64,000 nt of DNA from Armatimonadota bacterium. Its GTDB lineage: Bacteria; Sysuimicrobiota; Sysuimicrobiia; Sysuimicrobiales; Humicultoraceae. The translations under genes were made by a program, and so were the position numbers. How positions within the stretch are numbered: the stretch's first letter is position 1; each line of letters opens with the position of its first letter. The stretch covers positions 5,760 through 69,759 of the forward strand of contig JBBIOM010000005.1 in NCBI GenBank assembly GCA_037443365.1. Direction: 5' to 3'. The notes under the pieces are model-generated. The model searched no databases, had not been told where the DNA came from, and saw only the letters and a list, made by a program, of their open reading frames with translations. This document shows, piece after piece, positions 30,835-38,175 of the stretch.

Positions 30835-31968
30835 ATTACCATCTCAACGCACGAGACCGCGTTCGGCGGCCTCGTATTGCGCCCGGAGACCGTCCGGGCG
30901 ATAACCCGTCTCGGGTGGACCGAACCCACCCCGATTCAATCGAAGGTGATCCCCGCGCTCCTGGCAGGCCACGACGTCGCCGGCCAGGCGCAGACCGGAT
31001 CCGGCAAGACCGGCGCCTACGTCATTCCCATGCTCGAGCGCCTCGACCGCAATGCGCGAGGGATCCAATCGCTCGTGCTCTCACCCACCCGCGAGCTGGC
31101 CCTGCAGATCGCGGATGCGGTGCGCGCGCTGGGTGGACCCAAGATCCGCGTCACGGCGCTCTACGGCGGGCAGCCCATTGAGCGGCAGCTCGCCGCGCTG
31201 CGAGCCGGCGTGCAGGTGGCCGTGGCCACGCCAGGCCGCCTGCTCGATCACATCTCCCGGGGTTCGGTGAAGCTCGACGGCGTTCGGTTCCTGGTTCTAG
31301 ATGAGGCCGACCGGATGCTGGACATGGGCTTTCTGCCCGATGTGGAGGACATAATCCGGCTCACCCCGGCAGCGCGCCAGACCGCGCTGTTCTCGGCCAC
31401 GCTCCCAGACGCGGTGTCCACGATCGCGGCGCGGCACATGCGCAATCCATCGTGGATCAGGATCGCCGCGGCGGTGCCGACCGTCCAGACCGTGACGCAG
31501 TACTACCTGGAAGTGGCCGAACAGGACAAGGTGCGGGCGCTCCGGCTGCTGCTGACCAGCGGCGAGGTGCCCTCTGCCCTCGTCTTCCGGCGCACGCGCC
31601 GGGGAGCCGATCGGCTGGCCAAGATCCTGCGCGAGCGGGGTCAGCCGGTCGAGGTGATCCACGGTGATATGACCCAGGGCGCCCGGCTGCGCGCGCTGAC
31701 GGCCTTCGCCAAGGGAAGGGCCCAGGTGCTGGTGGCCACCAACGTCGCGGCCCGCGGGCTCGACCTTCCCGATATCTCGCACGTGGTCAACTTCGACATG
31801 CCCGAGGACGTGGACACCTACATCCACAGAGTCGGCCGCACAGCCCGGGCCGGACGCACCGGCGAGGCGATTACCTTCGTGGGCCAGCACGACGTGGAGG
31901 CGTTCGACCTGCTGCGGCGTCGGATCGGTTCGGCGCTGCAGCCCCACCCGCTGCCGCTGTACCGGTAA
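30835..31968 (+). CDS. DEAD-box RNA helicase (core only); probable ATT start
   Basis: Q motif PTPIQ, AQTGSGKT, PTRELA, TPGR, DEAD, SAT, ARGLD, HRVGRTAR; AGGAGGT SD lies 7 nt before ATT at 30835 (family certain, start inferred). Confidence 0.9.
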   Translation: MTISTHETAFGGLVLRPETVRAITRLGWTEPTPIQSKVIPALLAGHDVAGQAQTGSGKTGAYVIPMLERLDRNARGIQSLVLSPTRELALQIADAVRALGGPKIRVTALYGGQPIERQLAALRAGVQVAVATPGRLLDHISRGSVKLDGVRFLVLDEADRMLDMGFLPDVEDIIRLTPAARQTALFSATLPDAVSTIAARHMRNPSWIRIAAAVPTVQTVTQYYLEVAEQDKVRALRLLLTSGEVPSALVFRRTRRGADRLAKILRERGQPVEVIHGDMTQGARLRALTAFAKGRAQVLVATNVAARGLDLPDISHVVNFDMPEDVDTYIHRVGRTARAGRTGEAITFVGQHDVEAFDLLRRRIGSALQPHPLPLYR

Positions 31969-31988
31969 GAGCCTCCCCGCCCGAACGC

Positions 31989-32024
31989 AGGGACTGGTTT
32001 GGTCTATCCGGCCAACCAGTCCCT
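31989..32024 (+). terminator. Strong stem-loop downstream of the helicase gene
   Basis: Perfect 11-bp inverted repeat AGGGACTGGTT / AACCAGTCCCT; no U-tract. Confidence 0.5.
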
Positions 32025-32159
32025 CACCGGCACCCCGAGCGCTCCCGCGAGTCGTTCCAGGGTATCGAGGCTGGGAACATGTCGCCGGCCGTCAGATTGG
32101 AGTTATCCTGGGCCTCGCCATTTCGCGCCGGGCGTCCGGGCGTGGTATGCTCGGTGCGT

Positions 32160-33110
32160 ATGGCTGATCCTTCGCTGCCTGCCGCGGTGCCCTCGCCGCG
32201 CGCCACACCGGTTCAGCGCGAGAGGGAATTCGAGCTACTCGAGGAGATGACGCGCGCCATCCTCGAGGCAGCCGAGGTGCTCACCGGGGCCCTGGAGAGC
32301 CGCACGCCCGCGGGTCAGGCCTGGCAGGCGATCCGAGATCTCGAGCACAAGGGCGATGCGATTGCGCGCGATCTCTTCGAATTCCTCTCATCCCCCGGCG
32401 TCCCCGCCGGCGATCGCGACGCTCTGCAGGGTCTGACCGGACTCCTCGACGACGTGCTCGACGCCATCGAGGCCGCGGCCGCGCGGCTGGCGATCCACCG
32501 TATCCGCCGGGCGATCCCCCCGGCACGCGAGATGGGGCAGATCATGCTCCGGTTGGCGCAGGAACTCAGGCAAGCGATTCGCGAGGTACGCCACGGGCGA
32601 GAGGTCTTCCCCCACACGCGCACGTTGCATCGCTTGGAGAACCAGGGCGACGACGTGCTGCGGGACGCCCTCGAGACCTTGTTCTCGGGCCGGTACAGCG
32701 CCAGGGACATCATCAAGTGGAAAGACATCTGCGAGATGCTTGAGACCGGCACCGACCGCTGCGAGGATATCGCCAACGTCTTGGAGACGCTAATCGTTCG
32801 TCCAGGCGTGGAGCAGAAGCTTGCAGCCGGCCGTCTGTCCATTGACACGGACCGCCACGAGGCCACCGTGGCCGGCAAGCCCATTCCCCTCACCGCGAAG
32901 GAGTTCGGTCTCCTGCACCTTCTGGTTCGCCATCAAGGCAAGGTGGTTCGTCGCGAGCGGCTCCTGCGCGAGGTTTGGGGCGAGGACTACTTCGGCAACT
33001 CGCGTACCCTCGATACGCACATTGGCTGGCTACGCAAGAAGGTCGAGCCCTACGCTGGACTGCGGTTGGTGGTCGTGCGGGGCATCGGATACCGCCTGGA
33101 CCTAAAGTAG
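32160..33110 (+). CDS. DUF47 (PhoU-like) domain fused to an OmpR/PhoB winged-helix DNA-binding domain
   Basis: LEHKGD, LDDVLDAIE, LENQGD, IIKWKDI..LETGTDRCEDIANVLE (DUF47), then LTAKEFGLL, LLREVWG, RTLDTHI, VRGIGY (Trans_reg_C); no receiver domain. Confidence 0.88.
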   Translation: MADPSLPAAVPSPRATPVQREREFELLEEMTRAILEAAEVLTGALESRTPAGQAWQAIRDLEHKGDAIARDLFEFLSSPGVPAGDRDALQGLTGLLDDVLDAIEAAAARLAIHRIRRAIPPAREMGQIMLRLAQELRQAIREVRHGREVFPHTRTLHRLENQGDDVLRDALETLFSGRYSARDIIKWKDICEMLETGTDRCEDIANVLETLIVRPGVEQKLAAGRLSIDTDRHEATVAGKPIPLTAKEFGLLHLLVRHQGKVVRRERLLREVWGEDYFGNSRTLDTHIGWLRKKVEPYAGLRLVVVRGIGYRLDLK

Positions 33111-33164
33111 GTTTTTCCCAGGTTTGACATAGGGTTTACCCGGCCTTGGCCTATCTATCACCCC
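33110..33164 (+). promoter_or_regulatory. Pho-box-like direct repeats with 11-bp period upstream of pstS
   Basis: Hexamers TTTTCC (33113), TTGACA (33124), TTTACC (33135), TTGGCC (33146), ATCACC (33157); -10-like TATGGT at 33172. Confidence 0.65.
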
Positions 33165-33214
33165 CCGAGTCTATGGTTGGGGGGGAATGGACTGCAGCCA
33201 AAGGAGGCCAGGCA

Positions 33215-34273
33215 GTGCTCAAGCCGTTATCCTGTCTTCTTAGTCTTGCTCTAGGCATCGCGGTGGTATTGGGCGCGGCAGGGACCACGCCCGCGCAGCA
33301 ACCGGTGACGCTCAACGGCGCGGGCGCCACGTTTCCGTTCCCGCTCTACTCTAAGTGGTCGCAGGTGTACCACGCCGAGCGAGGGGTCCAGATCAACTAT
33401 CAGTCTATCGGCTCGGGAGGCGGCATCCGGCAGTTCATGGCCAAGACGGTGGATTTCGGCGCCACCGACGGGCCGATGACCGGTGAGCTGATCCGGCAGG
33501 CCGGCGGCAGGGTCCTGCACATCCCGATGGTGGCGGGCGCGGTTGTGCCAGTGTACAACGTTCCCGGCGTGGGCCCCGGCCTGAACTTCACCCCCGATGT
33601 CCTGGCGGACATCTTTCTCGGCAAGATCACGAAGTGGAACGATCCGCGGATTGCCGCCGTCAACACCGCAGCGAAGCTGCCGTCCGCCGACATCATCGTC
33701 GTCCGCCGCTCGGACGGCTCGGGGACCACGGCCATCTGGGTTAACTACCTAAGCAAGGTGAGCGCCGAGTGGAAAGCGAAGGTCGGCGAGGGAACCTCGG
33801 TCAACTGGCCGGTCGGACTGGGCGGCAAGGGCAACGAGGGCGTCACTGGGCTCGTCAGGCAGATGCCCAACTCGCTGGGCTACGTGGAGCTGGCCTACGC
33901 GCTCACGAACCAGATGACCTTCGGCAACGTGCGAAACAGGGCTGGGCAGTTCATCCGACCATCGCTATCGAGCACCACGAGGGCCGTGGAAGGCGCGCTT
34001 CGGTCTATCCCTGAAGACTACCGCATGTTCTTCACGAATCCCGAGGGCCGGGACGCTTACCCCATCGCGGGTTTCACCTGGATCCTGATCTACGGCGACC
34101 AGCCCGATCCTGCCAAGGGCAGGGCGCTGGTTGAGTTCCTGTGGTGGGCCACGCACGAGGGCCAGAAGTATGCGCCGACGCTGCTGTACGCAACGCTGCC
34201 CAAGAGCCTGGTGCAGCGCGTCGAGGGAACCTTGAAGACCGTGACCTCACAGGGGAAGGCCGTCATGCCCTAA
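33215..34273 (+). CDS. pstS: Phosphate ABC transporter substrate-binding protein
   Basis: GAGATFPFPLYSKW, YQSIGSGGG, DFGATD, RSDGSGTT, GKGNEG, YPIAGFTW; AAGGAGG SD. Confidence 0.96.
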   Translation: MLKPLSCLLSLALGIAVVLGAAGTTPAQQPVTLNGAGATFPFPLYSKWSQVYHAERGVQINYQSIGSGGGIRQFMAKTVDFGATDGPMTGELIRQAGGRVLHIPMVAGAVVPVYNVPGVGPGLNFTPDVLADIFLGKITKWNDPRIAAVNTAAKLPSADIIVVRRSDGSGTTAIWVNYLSKVSAEWKAKVGEGTSVNWPVGLGGKGNEGVTGLVRQMPNSLGYVELAYALTNQMTFGNVRNRAGQFIRPSLSSTTRAVEGALRSIPEDYRMFFTNPEGRDAYPIAGFTWILIYGDQPDPAKGRALVEFLWWATHEGQKYAPTLLYATLPKSLVQRVEGTLKTVTSQGKAVMP

Positions 34274-35214
34274 TGAGCACGTCGCCGCGCGCCGCCTCAG
34301 GGGCGGGCGACCTCCTCTTCCAGCGGCTGCTGGCCGCCGCCGCGGGCAGCGTGCTGGTTATTGTGGGCGCCATGCTACTCGCGCTTACCGTCTCTGCCTG
34401 GCCGGCGATCCGGCGGTTTGGCCTGGCGTTCTTCGCCACATCAACATGGGATCCGGTGGCCGGCCAGTTCGGCGCCCTCCCCTTTGTTTACGGGACGGTC
34501 GTGTCATCGATCATCGCACTGGCGCTGGCCATTCCGCTGGGGCTGGGCGTAGCCATCTTCCTGTCGGAACTCACCCCGCGTGGGCTCCGGGCACCCATAG
34601 GCTTCCTGGTCGAACTGCTGGCGGCCATCCCCAGTGTGGTTTACGGCCTGTGGGGTATCTTCGTGCTGGTCCCCTGGGTGCGCGCTTCGCTGGCGCCGTC
34701 GCTCAAGGCGTTGTTCGGATTCCTCCCCTTGTTTGAGGGACCGCCGCTGGGGGTGGGGATGCTGACCGCTGGCCTGATCCTGGCCATCATGGTTGTGCCG
34801 TTCATCGTCGCGGTGAGCACCGCGGTCATGCGTGCCGTGCCGCAGTCCCAGCGGGAGGCCGCGCTCTCGCTCGGGGCCACCACCTGGGAAACCACCCGAA
34901 CCGCCGTGCTCCCCTACGCCCGATCCGGCATCATGGGCGCGGTCTTCCTGGCCCTGGCCCGGGCCCTCGGCGAGACGATGGCGGTGACCATGTTGATCGG
35001 CAATGTCCCCCAGATCAAGGCGTCGCTGTTCGCGCCCGCCTACACCATCGCAGCGGTGATCGCCAACGAGTTCGCCGAGGCCACGGAAGACCTGTACCTG
35101 GCCGCCCTGATCTACGCGGGACTCGTCCTCTTCCTGGTCACGGTCGTCGTCAATGTCCTCGCCCGCATCCTCGTCGCCCGGGCGGCAAAGGGCCCGAGCC
35201 TGATCAGGGAGTGA
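34273..35214 (+). CDS. pstC: Phosphate ABC transporter permease
   Basis: WDP..FGALP, ELLAAIPSVVYGLWG, RALGETMAV, IANEFAEA. Confidence 0.95.
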   Translation: MSTSPRAASGAGDLLFQRLLAAAAGSVLVIVGAMLLALTVSAWPAIRRFGLAFFATSTWDPVAGQFGALPFVYGTVVSSIIALALAIPLGLGVAIFLSELTPRGLRAPIGFLVELLAAIPSVVYGLWGIFVLVPWVRASLAPSLKALFGFLPLFEGPPLGVGMLTAGLILAIMVVPFIVAVSTAVMRAVPQSQREAALSLGATTWETTRTAVLPYARSGIMGAVFLALARALGETMAVTMLIGNVPQIKASLFAPAYTIAAVIANEFAEATEDLYLAALIYAGLVLFLVTVVVNVLARILVARAAKGPSLIRE

Positions 35215-36065
35215 TGGGGATGGACCTGAGCTACGTACGGCGCAGGTGGACCAACCGGGCCATGGCTGTCCTAACATTCCTTTGCACCGTCGTCGTGCTG
35301 GCACCCCTGTTCTTCATCCTGTTCTTCCTGGCGCGCACCGGGCTTTCCGCCCTCAATCTGGATTTCTTCACCCACCTGCCGGGGCCGGCCGGTGAGCCCG
35401 GCGGCGGCATGGCCAATGCCATCGTGGGAACGCTGGTGCTGGTCGGGCTGGCAGCACTGCTCGGTGTGCCGGTCGGCGTGCTGGGCGGCATGTTCCTGGC
35501 AGAGTTCCCCGGCAGCCGGCTGGGCCACGCGGTCCGGCTGTTCGCTGACGTGATGAACGGGATGCCGAGCATCGTGATGGGTTTGTTCGCGTACACGCTC
35601 CTGGTGCTGCCACTCCGGCACTTCAGCGCGCTCGCCGGCGGGGTCGCCCTGGGCGTTATGCTGATTCCGACGGTGATGCGCACCACCGAGGAGATCGTCC
35701 GACTCGTGCCCCAGAGCCTCCGAGAGGCGTCGCTGGCGCTGGGTATCCCTCAGTGGAAGACGCTGCTTTGGATCGTCCTGCCCGCGGCGGCGGCCGGCAT
35801 CGTGACTGGAGTCATGGTGGGGCTCGCCCGCATCGCGGGAGAGACGGCGCCGTTGTTGTTCACGGCGTTCGGCAACCGCTTCTGGAACTGGGACCTGCTG
35901 CAGCCGATTGCCGCCCTGCCGCTGCAGATTTTCGCCTACGCCATCTCCCCGTTCGATGACTGGCACCGCCAGGCGTGGGCTGGCGCGCTTGTGCTGGTGG
36001 CGATAGTGTTGGCCATCAACGTCGCGGCGCGCTACTTCGCGGGCCGGCAGGCCAGGCTGCGTTGA
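35211..36065 (+). CDS. pstA: Phosphate ABC transporter permease
   Basis: [39 protein letters not shown]. Confidence 0.95.
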
Positions 36066-36844
36066 TGCCCGCCGCGCTCATTGACCACGCCGCCGGGATC
36101 GAAACCCAGGACCTGCACGCCTGGTTTGATCGGCTCCATGTGCTGCGCGGCATCACACTGAGGGCGGCCCCGCGGAGGGTGACGGCCATCATTGGGCCAT
36201 CCGGCTGCGGCAAATCCACCTTCCTGCGCTGCCTCAACCGGATGCACGAACTCGTCCTGGGCTCAAGGTCGAGCGGCCGCGTGTTGTTGGACAGCCAGGA
36301 CATCTACGCGCCGGCGGTGGACCCCGTGTTGATCCGCCGTCGCGTGGGCATGGTGTTCCAGAAACCCAATCCGTTTCCCACCATGAGCATCTATGACAAT
36401 GTGGCCGCGGGGCTGCGGCTGGCAGGCGAACGGGATCGCCGGAGGCTGGACGAGACCGTTGAACGCAGCCTGCGCGCGGCCGCGCTGTGGGATGAGGTGA
36501 AGGACCGGCTAGCCAAGTCCGGCACCAGCCTGTCGGGGGGGCAGCAGCAACGCCTGTGCATCGCCCGGGCCCTAGCGGTCTCACCGGAGGTGCTGCTGAT
36601 GGACGAGCCGGCCTCCGCGCTCGACCCTTCCGCGACATTGAAGATTGAGGAGCTGGCGCGCGAGCTGGCCGCGCAGATCACCATCGTGATAGTGACCCAC
36701 AACATGCAGGAGGCGGCCCGGGTCTCCGACTTCACAGGGTTCTTCCTCAGCGGTGAGATGGTGGAGTACGGCGCCACCGACCAGATCTTCACCAGGCCCC
36801 GGGACCGCCGCACCGAAGACTACATCACCGGCAGGTTCGGGTAG
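36065..36844 (+). CDS. pstB: Phosphate ABC transporter ATP-binding protein
   Basis: [42 protein letters not shown]. Confidence 0.97.
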
Positions 36845-36853
36845 GAGGCGGCC

Positions 36854-37510
36854 GTGACGCGGGAACTCTTTCTCAGGGAGCTGAACGCCCTCCAGGGCGA
36901 CGCCGTGCGCATGGCCGGGATGGCCGGGGATGCTATTCACGCGGCGGTGGAGGCGCTCAAAGAACGCGACAGCGCCCTCGCGGACCGGATCATTGAAGAG
37001 GACGACAGGATCGACGCGCTGCACCTGGAACTCGAGGAACGGTGCATGCGCCTGCTAGCCAGGCAGCAGCCGATGGCATCGGATCTGCGGACGATCGCGG
37101 CGGTTCTTGCCATCACCATCGACCTGGAGCGCATGGCTGATCACGCCGAGGGGATTTCGAAGTGCGCGAAACGGCTGGCTGACCAGCCGTTGCTCAAGCC
37201 CTTGATTGACATCCCGCGGATGGAGATCCTGGTCGGGGAGATGCTGCGCGACGCGATGGACGCGTTCCTCCGTCGCGATGCCGTACTCGCCGAGGCGATG
37301 GCGAAGAAGGACGACGAGGTGGACGCGCTGCGCAGCCAGGTGTTCCGCGAGCTGCTGACGTACATGATGAGCGATCCGCGGTCCATCCCCAGGGCCCTGG
37401 AACTGCTGCTGGTGGCGCAGCACCTCGAACGGGCGGCCGATCACATCACCAACATCGGCGAGCGCGTCATCTACATGGTGACCGGCGAACTGCGGGAATT
37501 GAACGTCTAG
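36854..37510 (+). CDS. phoU: Phosphate signalling protein PhoU
   Basis: QQPMASDLR, DLERMADHA, DDEVD, LERAADHITNIGE. Confidence 0.96.
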   Translation: MTRELFLRELNALQGDAVRMAGMAGDAIHAAVEALKERDSALADRIIEEDDRIDALHLELEERCMRLLARQQPMASDLRTIAAVLAITIDLERMADHAEGISKCAKRLADQPLLKPLIDIPRMEILVGEMLRDAMDAFLRRDAVLAEAMAKKDDEVDALRSQVFRELLTYMMSDPRSIPRALELLLVAQHLERAADHITNIGERVIYMVTGELRELNV

Positions 37511-37535: not shown

Positions 37536-37736
37536 ATGCCCACTGTCCTATTCGTCTGAGCCCACAACACCGCCCGCTCGCAGGTAGCGGAGGGGCTGTT
37601 CAACGCCCTGGCGCCGGCGGGCTGGCGGGCTCGGTCCGCGGGAACGGACCCCCAGGGTACGGTGCGCGAGGAAGCCTGCCCAGTCCTCCCCGTGGTACGC
37701 AGCCTCATCCACGACCTGGGAGGAGAACCAGCATGA
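37536..37736 (+). pseudogene. arsC: Internally deleted ArsC / low-molecular-weight PTP family relic with in-frame TGA at the catalytic Cys
   Basis: Reads MPTVLFV*AHNTARSQVAEGLFNALAPAGWRARSAGTDP..EEACPVLPVVRSLIHDLGGEPA; 66 codons, about half the normal length. Confidence 0.8.
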
Positions 37737-38175
37737 GCGATCGCCGGTCCGATGTGGTTGCCTACGCGGCGGGCTGCGCCTGGACCGCGTCCTCTACTCA
37801 CCGCTTCACTACCCGGCTGACTACGGGTTCATCGTGGACACCCTGGCGAACGACGGGGACCACCTCGATGTCCTCATCTTTACCTATGAACCGACCTTCC
37901 CGGGCTGCCTCGTGGAGGTCCGTCCCGTCGGCGTGCTGGACATGCACGACGAGAAGGGGCACGACCAGAAGATCCTGGCCGTGCCAGTCGGCGACCCGCG
38001 CTTCCAGGGCGTGACCGATCTGGGGCACCTGCCCCCGCACTTCCTCAAGGAGGTGGAGCACTTCTTCGCGGTCTACAAGACGCTTGAGCAGAAGCCGGTG
38101 GAGATCCACGGCTGGGCCGGGGCAGAGGAAGCGCGCCGGTTGATCAGCGAGGCCCGGCGCTCGCTGCCGTCCTGA
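37733..38175 (+). pseudogene. ppa: Inorganic pyrophosphatase (family I) disrupted by an N-terminal deletion and frameshift
   Basis: SD and ATG at 37733 (MSDRRSDVVAY) are in one frame; GLRLDRVLYSPLHYPADYGFI..DGDHLDV..DQKILAVP is in another; the IEIP...KYE segment is missing. Confidence 0.82.

Follow-up and report, generated by a model that had tools for sequence, protein, structure and literature searches.

A receiver-less DUF47–winged-helix fusion protein as a candidate regulator of the pst operon in Sysuimicrobiota

A fusion gene directly upstream of pstSCAB-phoU

The stretch of DNA analysed here, which we call the window, comprises 64,000 nucleotides (nt) of contig JBBIOM010000005.1 from an Armatimonadota bacterium of the lineage CSP1-3/Sysuimicrobiota. 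On its forward strand lies a gene whose product (protein P0001) carries a DUF47 domain followed by a winged helix of the OmpR/PhoB type. A first, sequence-only reading of this DNA had placed the gene directly upstream of pstSCAB-phoU, and Pfam matches confirm the identity of the downstream genes. On balance, we favour the view that the protein is a receiver-less Pho activator of pst that would be gated by its DUF47 domain. The locus contains the following features.

32143..32151, forward strand: TGGTATGCT, extended -10-like box of the regulator gene, found once in the window; putative promoter
32160..33110, forward strand: fusion regulator gene (protein P0001), uninterrupted open reading frame (ORF) of 316 aa plus stop
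32226..32798, forward strand: DUF47 / PhoU_div domain, residues 23-213; two three-helix bundles in the model
32799..32816, forward strand: interdomain linker of 6 residues (214-219), placed by model secondary structure and predicted local distance difference test (pLDDT)
32817..33104, forward strand: OmpR/PhoB-type winged helix, putatively DNA-binding; residues 220-315 in the model, 239-313 in Pfam
33111..33165, forward strand: Pho-box-like array of five head-to-tail 11-nt direct repeats, beginning one base after the stop codon
33111-121 (weak), 33122-132, 33133-143, 33144-154 and 33155-165, forward strand: units of the array, core TT(T/G/C)(A/G)C
33172..33177, forward strand: TATGGT, putative -10 box of pstS, 6 nt past the last repeat
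33215..34273, forward strand: pstS, GTG start; PBP_like_2, E 2.1e-35
34273-35214, forward strand: pstC; BPD_transp_1
35211-36065, forward strand: pstA; BPD_transp_1
about 36065-36844, forward strand: pstB, start uncertain, ORF open from 35975; ABC_tran
36854-37510, forward strand: phoU, 218 aa, two PhoU repeats; PF01895, E 7.7e-47

Pfam, the translation and a structural model agree that DUF47 and the winged helix share one ORF and that a receiver is missing, as had been read from the letters. In Pfam, residues 23-213 match PhoU_div (PF01865; E 3e-15, 56.6 bits against a cut-off of 24.4) and residues 239-313 match Trans_reg_C (PF00486; E 2e-25, 89.1 bits against a cut-off of 26.2) over the full profile (1-77). 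The same searches found no receiver (REC) domain (Response_reg, PF00072) at E up to 0.01 and no match to the PhoU repeat PF01895. The protein has the architecture of a one-component regulator, a putative sensor plus a DNA-binding domain without REC, HisKA or HATPase. All motifs quoted in the sequence-only reading are present in the translation, namely LEHKGD (61-66), LDDVLDAIE (96-104), LENQGD (159-164), LETGTDRCED (194-203) and RTLDTHI (282-288).

The AlphaFold2 model, built from 130 aligned sequences, has a mean pLDDT of 92.1 and a predicted template modelling score of 0.78. It consists of six helices (18-213), the linker and the winged helix (220-315) with a four-stranded sheet in front. 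The linker is the sole low-confidence part inside the fold (mean pLDDT 67 for the block 211-220). When the halves were compared to known structures with Foldseek, the DUF47 half matched 3l39 with a template modelling (TM) score of 0.85 on the target and, more weakly, Aquifex PhoU (1t72, TM 0.74 on the target). The winged-helix half matched the effector domains of YycF, VicR, PhoB, PhoP and SaeR (TM 0.81-0.90 on the target), with the PhoB entries 1gxp and 1gxq and also RegX3 among the matches. A sequence search of the PDB likewise returned 3l39 for the DUF47 half (E 2.4e-20) and RegX3 as the top winged-helix match.

The sequence-only reading had likened RTLDTHI to a PhoB motif; what we tested is the affinity of the domain: PhoB gives the best NCBIfam model and RegX3 the best PDB match. 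The PhoB model (TIGR02154) scores 72.9 bits against a cut-off of 296.2 and covers model positions 128-226 only; the score is below the cut-off because only the effector half matches. A complex predicted for the DUF47 half (residues 1-218) with the PhoU of the operon scored 0.01 against a mark of 0.32, in a prediction run without controls, and is no argument for or against binding.

The fusion is genuine and conserved

The domain boundary holds up in sequencing data. Three public sequencing runs from a single study, one of which may be the source of the window itself, yielded contigs that cross the junction: X1 (31932-33400, 1 difference), X3 (31902-33143, 23 differences) and X2 (32082-33400). 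The ORF itself shows no length difference in these contigs, the reported ones being the loss of 1 nt at 33179 and the insert of X2 at 32081/32082. The 15 strain variants inside the ORF comprise 9 synonymous and 6 non-synonymous changes.

A search over 5.8 billion proteins returned 417 relatives, of which we examined the best 120. All of these have both domains, with lengths of 286-352 aa (mostly 307-323) and identities of 63-100%. They come from many assemblies; those that bear a name in their sources are called 'DUF47 family protein', 'hypothetical protein', 'uncharacterized protein Yka' or 'DNA-binding response OmpR family regulator'. Together with the confident model over both domains and the presence of the fusion in 50 of 94 genomes (see below), these results refute the explanation that an assembly or frame error joined two genes; we found no point in its favour and regard it as practically impossible.

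Among 1.84 billion cluster representatives, a single full-length two-domain cluster at 50% identity was found (P0122), plus fragments such as P0123 (313 aa), which matches residues 31-278 only. The other representatives were stand-alone DUF47 proteins at 28-40% identity or ordinary response regulators. We found the same architecture in no other lineage: the multi-domain matches that were checked combine REC with a winged helix or PhoU with DUF47. Judged from these searches, the fusion family is real, tightly conserved and confined to CSP1-3/Sysuimicrobiota. The representative library also held another uncommon fusion, P0139 (451 aa), in which two PhoU repeats (PF01895) precede a C-terminal DUF47.

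In an alignment of 58 fusions, 76 columns are invariant and include the four acidic motifs of DUF47. In the predicted recognition helix (RTLDTHIGWLRKK), the invariant residues are R282, T283, L284, D285, T286, H287, W290, L291, R292 and K294. In a joint alignment of fusions and 99 stand-alone DUF47 proteins (130 sequences in total), D97, E160, D164 and E195 do not vary, and conservation is at least 90% at E62, D66, D98, D101, D199, E202 and D203.

Co-inheritance with pstS and gene neighbourhoods

To describe the distribution of the gene, we used 94 genomes of the phylum from seven families; the tallies include the unpublished genomes G017 and G025, on which no conclusion hangs. The fusion occurs in 50 genomes (E 1e-60 or better), with contig-end fragments in 2 more. 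A pstS of the type found in the window (at least 75% identity) is present in 27/94 genomes, all 27 of which have the fusion (G049 as a contig-end fragment only), and in none of the 42 fusion-less genomes. The eight genomes of the window's own genus split evenly, four having both genes and four neither, with those that lack them being 85-96% complete. This co-occurrence shows that the gene and the pst operon move as one module. Separately, we observed that family f5 (12 genomes, 72-100% complete) has no fusion, nor a PstS of either type that the query used could detect; this family appears to rely on other phosphate uptake routes.

We then compared 27 related loci. A pstS on the same strand follows the fusion gene in 13 of them and a divergent pstS adjoins it in one; phoU follows it directly in five, and two more have phoU shortly before the fusion gene, on contigs that break off behind it. 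A further two loci have a pst operon of a second type (PBP_like_2 binding protein, long permeases) 1-3.5 kb downstream. The remaining four have none of these arrangements. The expectation that homologues stay beside pst genes is thereby extended to pst or phoU and holds for 23/27 loci. The only kinases beside the fusion gene in these loci are unrelated ones, in L023 and L027.

An mgs-like (MGS-domain) gene frequently comes next in family f4, with or without a pstS after it. Methylglyoxal synthase releases phosphate from dihydroxyacetone phosphate, and phosphate inhibits the enzyme; given this phosphate chemistry, an mgs-like gene would be a sensible Pho target. The following mgs-like genes stand behind a repeat array, directly after the fusion gene.

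L091:9463-9936
L023:8704-9522
L107:10347-10760
L108:8500-8889

One irregularity lies beyond the pst operon of the window. The inorganic pyrophosphatase gene after phoU (37733-38175) seems to be short of about 40 N-terminal residues: its ORF 37834-38175 covers Pfam positions 43-150 only, and the ATG further up, at 37733, does not share its frame. The 5' coding stretch is conserved in L039 and L034, and the window has unrelated sequence in its place. Truncation of the gene or a fault in the assembly may explain this.

A repeat array in the place of the -35 element of pstS

The spacer of 104 nt between the fusion gene and pstS holds, in this order, the repeat array, TATGGT, the ribosome-binding site AAAGGAGG (33200-33207) and the GTG start codon at 33215. 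The repeats follow the family consensus (C/G)CTT(C/G)AC-N-(C/T). A TAnnnT box stands at the equal position after the last unit in 11 aligned intergenic regions. The pstS promoter has no -35 hexamer, and a consensus promoter scan found no two-hexamer sigma-70 promoter in 31900-33300.

Arrays of 3-6 units with an exact period of 11 nt start 4-56 nt past the stop codon of the fusion gene in the window and in 12 related loci (L017, L021-L024, L026, L029-L031, L034, L039, L040). In L018, the divergent spacer holds arrays in both orientations. In unit length, core and position, the array matches the operator published for Streptomyces PhoP, which consists of up to six 11-nt direct repeats (GG/TTCAYYYRG/CG) close to the -35 region (PMC2275107).

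We trained a position weight matrix (PWM) on 43 units of 10 promoters, the pstS promoter of the window being one of them. On the 2.2-Mb genome, four-unit arrays above 18 bits occur at two places only, the pstS promoter and contig C21, and one more three-unit array above 20 bits occurs at contig C62. The control with reversed or complement-only sequence gave nothing above 14 bits, and the PWM search found no repeat array before the pit-DUF47 loci of the genome. Because training included the window promoter, only arrays in loci that were left out of it count as independent support (L018, L019, L023, L026, L032, L035, L042, L043, L090, L091, L107, L108). The arrays at C21 and C62 were considered as members of a fusion regulon. 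This was rejected, as like arrays stand with homologous genes in fusion-less genomes and a like array also precedes the regulator operon on contig C11.

Where the array sits also bears on the sign of the regulation. If the fusion were a repressor, it would occupy the array at plentiful phosphate and block an otherwise active promoter that starvation then frees. Such a protein would suit the regulator's own promoter, which has no array and apparently is constitutive, as well as the precedent of Staphylococcus aureus. There, the DUF47 protein PitR is described as a negative accessory regulator of PhoPR: when phosphate is in excess, cells without it express pst and nptA more strongly (PMC13170248). 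However, the array precedes the -10 box, in the transcribed orientation and in place of the absent -35, and no two-hexamer promoter was found there. This is the layout of promoters activated by PhoB and PhoP (PMC2275107), though position alone is not decisive. We therefore consider a repressor improbable.

The own promoter of the regulator gene would be marked by TGGTATGCT, which ends 8 nt before the ATG at 32160. The same box recurs, equally spaced from the start codon, in L020 as GTGGTATGCTC and in L033 as GTGCTATGCTC, the latter differing by one change. As the box is so near the ATG, the transcript probably has little or no leader. Pho-box repeats are absent from this promoter, which together with the conserved box suggests that the regulator is expressed constitutively. 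An alternative start at ATG 32079 would give a protein of 343 aa (P0002). We prefer ATG 32160 because of the lengths of the homologues and the conserved box 8 nt upstream, and because the insert in run X2, 1401 nt long, falls between 32081 and 32082, in the spacer that separates the regulator gene from the helicase gene.

Upstream of the fusion gene are genes for a DEAD-box helicase, a deaminase and a glutamine synthetase. Just past the helicase stop codon, at 31990-32023, there is a perfect 10-bp inverted repeat (GGGACTGGTT / AACCAGTCCC) with a 14-nt loop. It may act as a terminator, though one that lacks a T tract; the consensus scan made no call.

The fusion takes a regulator-kinase slot in relatives

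The sequence-only reading had noted that the window contains neither a histidine kinase nor a pit gene. This was confirmed, with matches elsewhere in the genome only: PHO4 (pit) on contig C3, and the kinase model TIGR02966 on C58, C23, C11, C55, C2, C65, C59, C4 and C9, with none on C5, the contig of the window. For pit, the observation does not extend to the genome, which has pit with two stand-alone DUF47 partners in two ordinary loci.

C3:54008-56500: DUF47-pit locus with two tandem pit copies
C3:88826-89926: DUF47-pit locus

The pit match at C3:88826-89926 contains an internal TGA and an internal TAG, and this copy may be broken.

Fusion-less relatives have a different arrangement before pst. 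In G072, pit, DUF47, a regulator with REC and winged helix, a kinase with PAS, HisKA and HATPase, and pstSCAB follow each other on one strand. Likewise, in fusion-less f4 genomes the more distant pstSCAB-phoU is preceded by pit, DUF47, regulator and kinase. In L029, orthologous pit (72%) and DUF47 (70%) genes lie beside fusion-pstS, without the regulator or the kinase, and in g26 the fusion stands directly before the orthologous pstS, or before an mgs-like gene that is followed by pstS.

Orthologues of the pst-linked kinase (at least 62% identity) were found in 14 genomes, all from f4. The 23 f4 genomes comprise 10 with the kinase only, 8 with the fusion only, 4 with both (g23) and 1 incomplete genome with neither. 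The genome of the window has no orthologue of this PhoR/PhoP-like pair: the best kinase match reaches 40% over part of the protein and the regulator matches reach 43-48% only. These comparisons of gene order support the view that the fusion replaced the regulator-kinase slot before pstS. A strict complementarity between the fusion and the PhoR-like kinase was also considered and is ruled out as a general rule by the four g23 genomes.

The promoters differ in parallel. Those linked to the two-component pair have TTAAC/TTAAT repeats (L086, L087, L089, L093, L109), whereas those next to the fusion have TT(C/G)AC repeats, also in g23; the pstS promoters of g26 mix both flavours. From this pattern we infer a separate operator flavour for each regulator.

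For the origin of the fusion, we inferred a tree for each half. The fusions form a single clade in the winged-helix tree (support 100/99) and in the DUF47 tree (Shimodaira–Hasegawa-like approximate likelihood ratio test, SH-aLRT, 100; stem 1.19). A single clade for each half suggests that the fusion arose once. The group in which the winged helix falls together with the pst-linked regulators excludes every regulator of the window's genome. An origin by joining of neighbouring DUF47 and regulator genes is possible. The variant in which the neighbouring DUF47 gene was simply consumed is unsupported, as L029 keeps a stand-alone DUF47 gene beside the fusion.

How the regulator may work

In the activator model that we favour, the regulator would be made from its constitutive promoter, which has no Pho-box repeats. 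Several protomers would bind the 11-nt repeats through the C-terminal winged helix. Since the repeats occupy the -35 position of the pstS promoter, the bound winged helix would supply the function of this missing element, and binding would activate pstSCAB-phoU. In relatives, the target would be the mgs-like gene or the second-type pst operon. The DUF47/PitR domain would take the place of the phosphorylatable receiver as an inhibitory, signal-receiving module: it would keep the winged helix inactive when phosphate is plentiful and release it when phosphate is scarce. The signal might enter by phosphate or metal binding at DUF47, or by contact with PhoU, PstB or Pit. We propose an inhibitory input domain because all residues conserved in the DUF47 family are retained, because PitR has a negative role in S. 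aureus as described (PMC13170248), and because the isolated DNA-binding domain of PhoP is reported to be the more active form (PMC2275107).

A more specific version, which we put forward tentatively, is that DUF47 itself is the cytoplasmic phosphate sensor, with its acidic clusters binding phosphate or a phosphate-metal complex and thereby gating the oligomerisation of the winged helix on the array. Alternatively, DUF47 may sense another signal (metal, arsenate, energy state) or be a constitutive oligomerisation scaffold, such that phosphate control would come only via PhoU or the promoter context. The long branch of the fusion DUF47 (stem 1.19) allows for a changed function, and our analysis identified no ligand for any DUF47 protein. 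Yet every acidic position conserved in the family is retained, and the conserved neighbours are all phosphate genes (pstS, phoU, second-type pst, pit-DUF47, mgs-like), so that another signal or a scaffold role appears very unlikely.

Several observations weigh against the activator model. DNA binding, activation and phosphate response of the fusion are predictions, and activation rather than repression is judged solely from the position of the repeats. The scores of the PWM on its 10 training promoters are circular, since these belong to the very class that it is meant to detect. No adjacent array was found in the four loci L020, L033, L038 and L041, where phoU is the next gene. The trees leave the donors open: the winged helix groups with the pst-linked regulators at moderate support (83/82) without pointing to a donor, and the DUF47 half sits on a long branch with neither sister nor donor resolved. 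Furthermore, the genome has five complete OmpR-type regulator/kinase pairs, of which the regulators on C11 and C23 reach 233.9 and 219.8 bits on the PhoB model (cut-off 296.2). TTCAC arrays with the 11-nt period precede two paralogous secreted-protein genes (C21, C62) and the C11 regulator operon, and like arrays occur in loci with homologous secreted-protein genes of the fusion-less G027, G031 and G033. These look-alike arrays in fusion-less genomes imply that another regulator reads similar repeats, and it could read the pstS array as well. Lastly, the fusion coexists with the pst-embedded PhoR/PhoP-like pair in the four g23 genomes, so it is not always a replacement of the two-component pair.

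The last three observations would fit a model in which a canonical OmpR regulator, e.g. that of the C11 or C23 pair, activates pstS and the fusion only modulates it. The fusion would then be a DNA-tethered, PitR-like brake that occupies the repeats without activation or forms mixed oligomers, in line with PitR as a negative accessory factor in S. aureus in the cited description (PMC13170248). Whether the genome has a canonical phoR/phoB was a point raised by the sequence-only reading, and the answer is mixed. The five pairs could still provide a canonical relay; none of them, however, reaches the PhoB or PhoR cut-off, they look like copper, Kdp, MtrA/YycF-like and unknown systems, and none is near phosphate genes. 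The C23 kinase is of the HAMP type, without PAS, and lies among peptidase and GGDEF genes, while the C11 pair is grouped with cupredoxin and SHOCT genes behind an array of its own. The lack of orthologues of the pst-linked kinase and regulator, the absence of window-type pstS from all fusion-less genomes and the repeats at the -35 region, the usual place of an activator, also argue against this model. A merely modulating fusion is thus unlikely in our view, and we retain the activator model.

The genes behind the look-alike arrays form a subject of their own.

L071:250-861 (C21:22649-23260): secreted-protein gene after a TTCAC array
L072:182-798 (C62): paralogous secreted-protein gene after a TTCAC array

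Their products (162 and 166 aa) are 58% identical and match no Pfam family. In relatives, such an array precedes an operon of a 161-aa secreted protein, a C21/C62-type protein and a Fer4_5 membrane protein, and on C11 it precedes an operon of SHOCT, cupredoxin, regulator and kinase genes. The arrays of C21, C62 and C11 probably belong to another regulon of the OmpR type, with copper or redox as a conceivable theme.

Comparison with known phosphate regulators

When comparing the fusion to known regulators, we find partial likeness to several. Its C-terminus belongs to the same winged-helix family as PhoB of E. coli, PhoP of Streptomyces and Bacillus, and RegX3 of Mycobacterium, and its putative target looks like theirs, with direct repeats of 11 nt in tandem that have a TTCA(C/Y) core and lie at the -35 region of pstS (PMC2275107). 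Unlike them, the fusion has no receiver, no phospho-acceptor Asp and no adjoining kinase. Its N-terminal 213 residues form the six-helix DUF47 bundle instead, and as a whole it falls below the cut-off of the PhoB equivalog model TIGR02154. Isolated effector domains of PhoB and PhoP are laboratory truncations without a regulatory domain, which sets them apart from the fusion. For the isolated DNA-binding domain of PhoP, binding to operators of several units is reported to be cooperative and to exceed that of full-length PhoP in efficiency (PMC2275107), which makes a natural receiver-less form plausible.

With the stand-alone DUF47 protein PitR/YkaA, the fusion shares the domain (by score), the fold, the acidic positions and the linkage to phosphate transport. 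PitR is described as a single-domain protein of about 205 aa that is next to pitA in 97.8% co-occurrence and acts through PhoPR (PMC13170248), whereas the fusion has its own putative DNA-binding domain and adjoins pst, not pit. In addition, its DUF47 forms a long-branched clade apart from the stand-alone DUF47 proteins. PhoU has a related helical-bundle fold (1t72, TM 0.74) and shares the operon neighbourhood; it has no DNA-binding domain, and the fusion in turn lacks the two PF01895 repeats, with an ordinary phoU present separately at 36854-37510. Archaeal SpoVT/AbrB-PhoU regulators (T. kodakarensis TK2245) also combine a domain of the PhoU superfamily and a DNA-binder in one polypeptide. They are set apart by the AbrB-type binder, a PhoU domain that is PF01895-type by name, and their archaeal origin.

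The sequence-only reading knew of no characterisation of this architecture, and no description of the fusion was found in the literature that we searched. The 2026 survey of PhoU/PitR accessory regulators covered single-domain PhoU_div proteins only (PMC13170248). Phosphate regulation (PhoU, pst/pstS, two-component, PhoR) is absent from the main text of the papers on the phylum, whose supplements may list the genes. Our analysis adds the repeat array beside the gene, its co-inheritance with pstS, the replacement of the regulator-kinase slot, a second operator flavour, a genus in which both systems coexist, and the caution on look-alike arrays.

Significance

In model systems, transporter, accessory protein, kinase and response regulator all handle the phosphate signal in turn, and single steps are hard to isolate. 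How proteins of the PhoU family perceive phosphate and signal to the Pho regulator is a long-standing question. In the fusion, a PhoU-like domain is joined straight to a DNA-binding output, whose read-out would be the putative binding to a 55-bp array. The fusion would therefore allow the input signal of DUF47/PitR domains to be assayed with one protein, and close relatives that keep the pit-DUF47-regulator-kinase layout at the same promoter provide a natural comparison pair. If DUF47 were indeed the phosphate sensor, the protein would be a complete one-protein sensor-activator that displaced PhoR-PhoP at the pst promoter, and the simplest natural system to show what PhoU-family domains sense.

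More generally, the locus would show how, in nature, a one-component regulator can supplant a two-component system while the operators are conserved, and a compact, kinase-free phosphate-responsive switch may serve as a genetic part. For the organisms themselves, the pst module appears to come with a private regulator and to be gained or lost within one genus, which bears on how the uncultured CSP1-3 bacteria adapt to life in the phosphate-poor subsurface and in hot springs.

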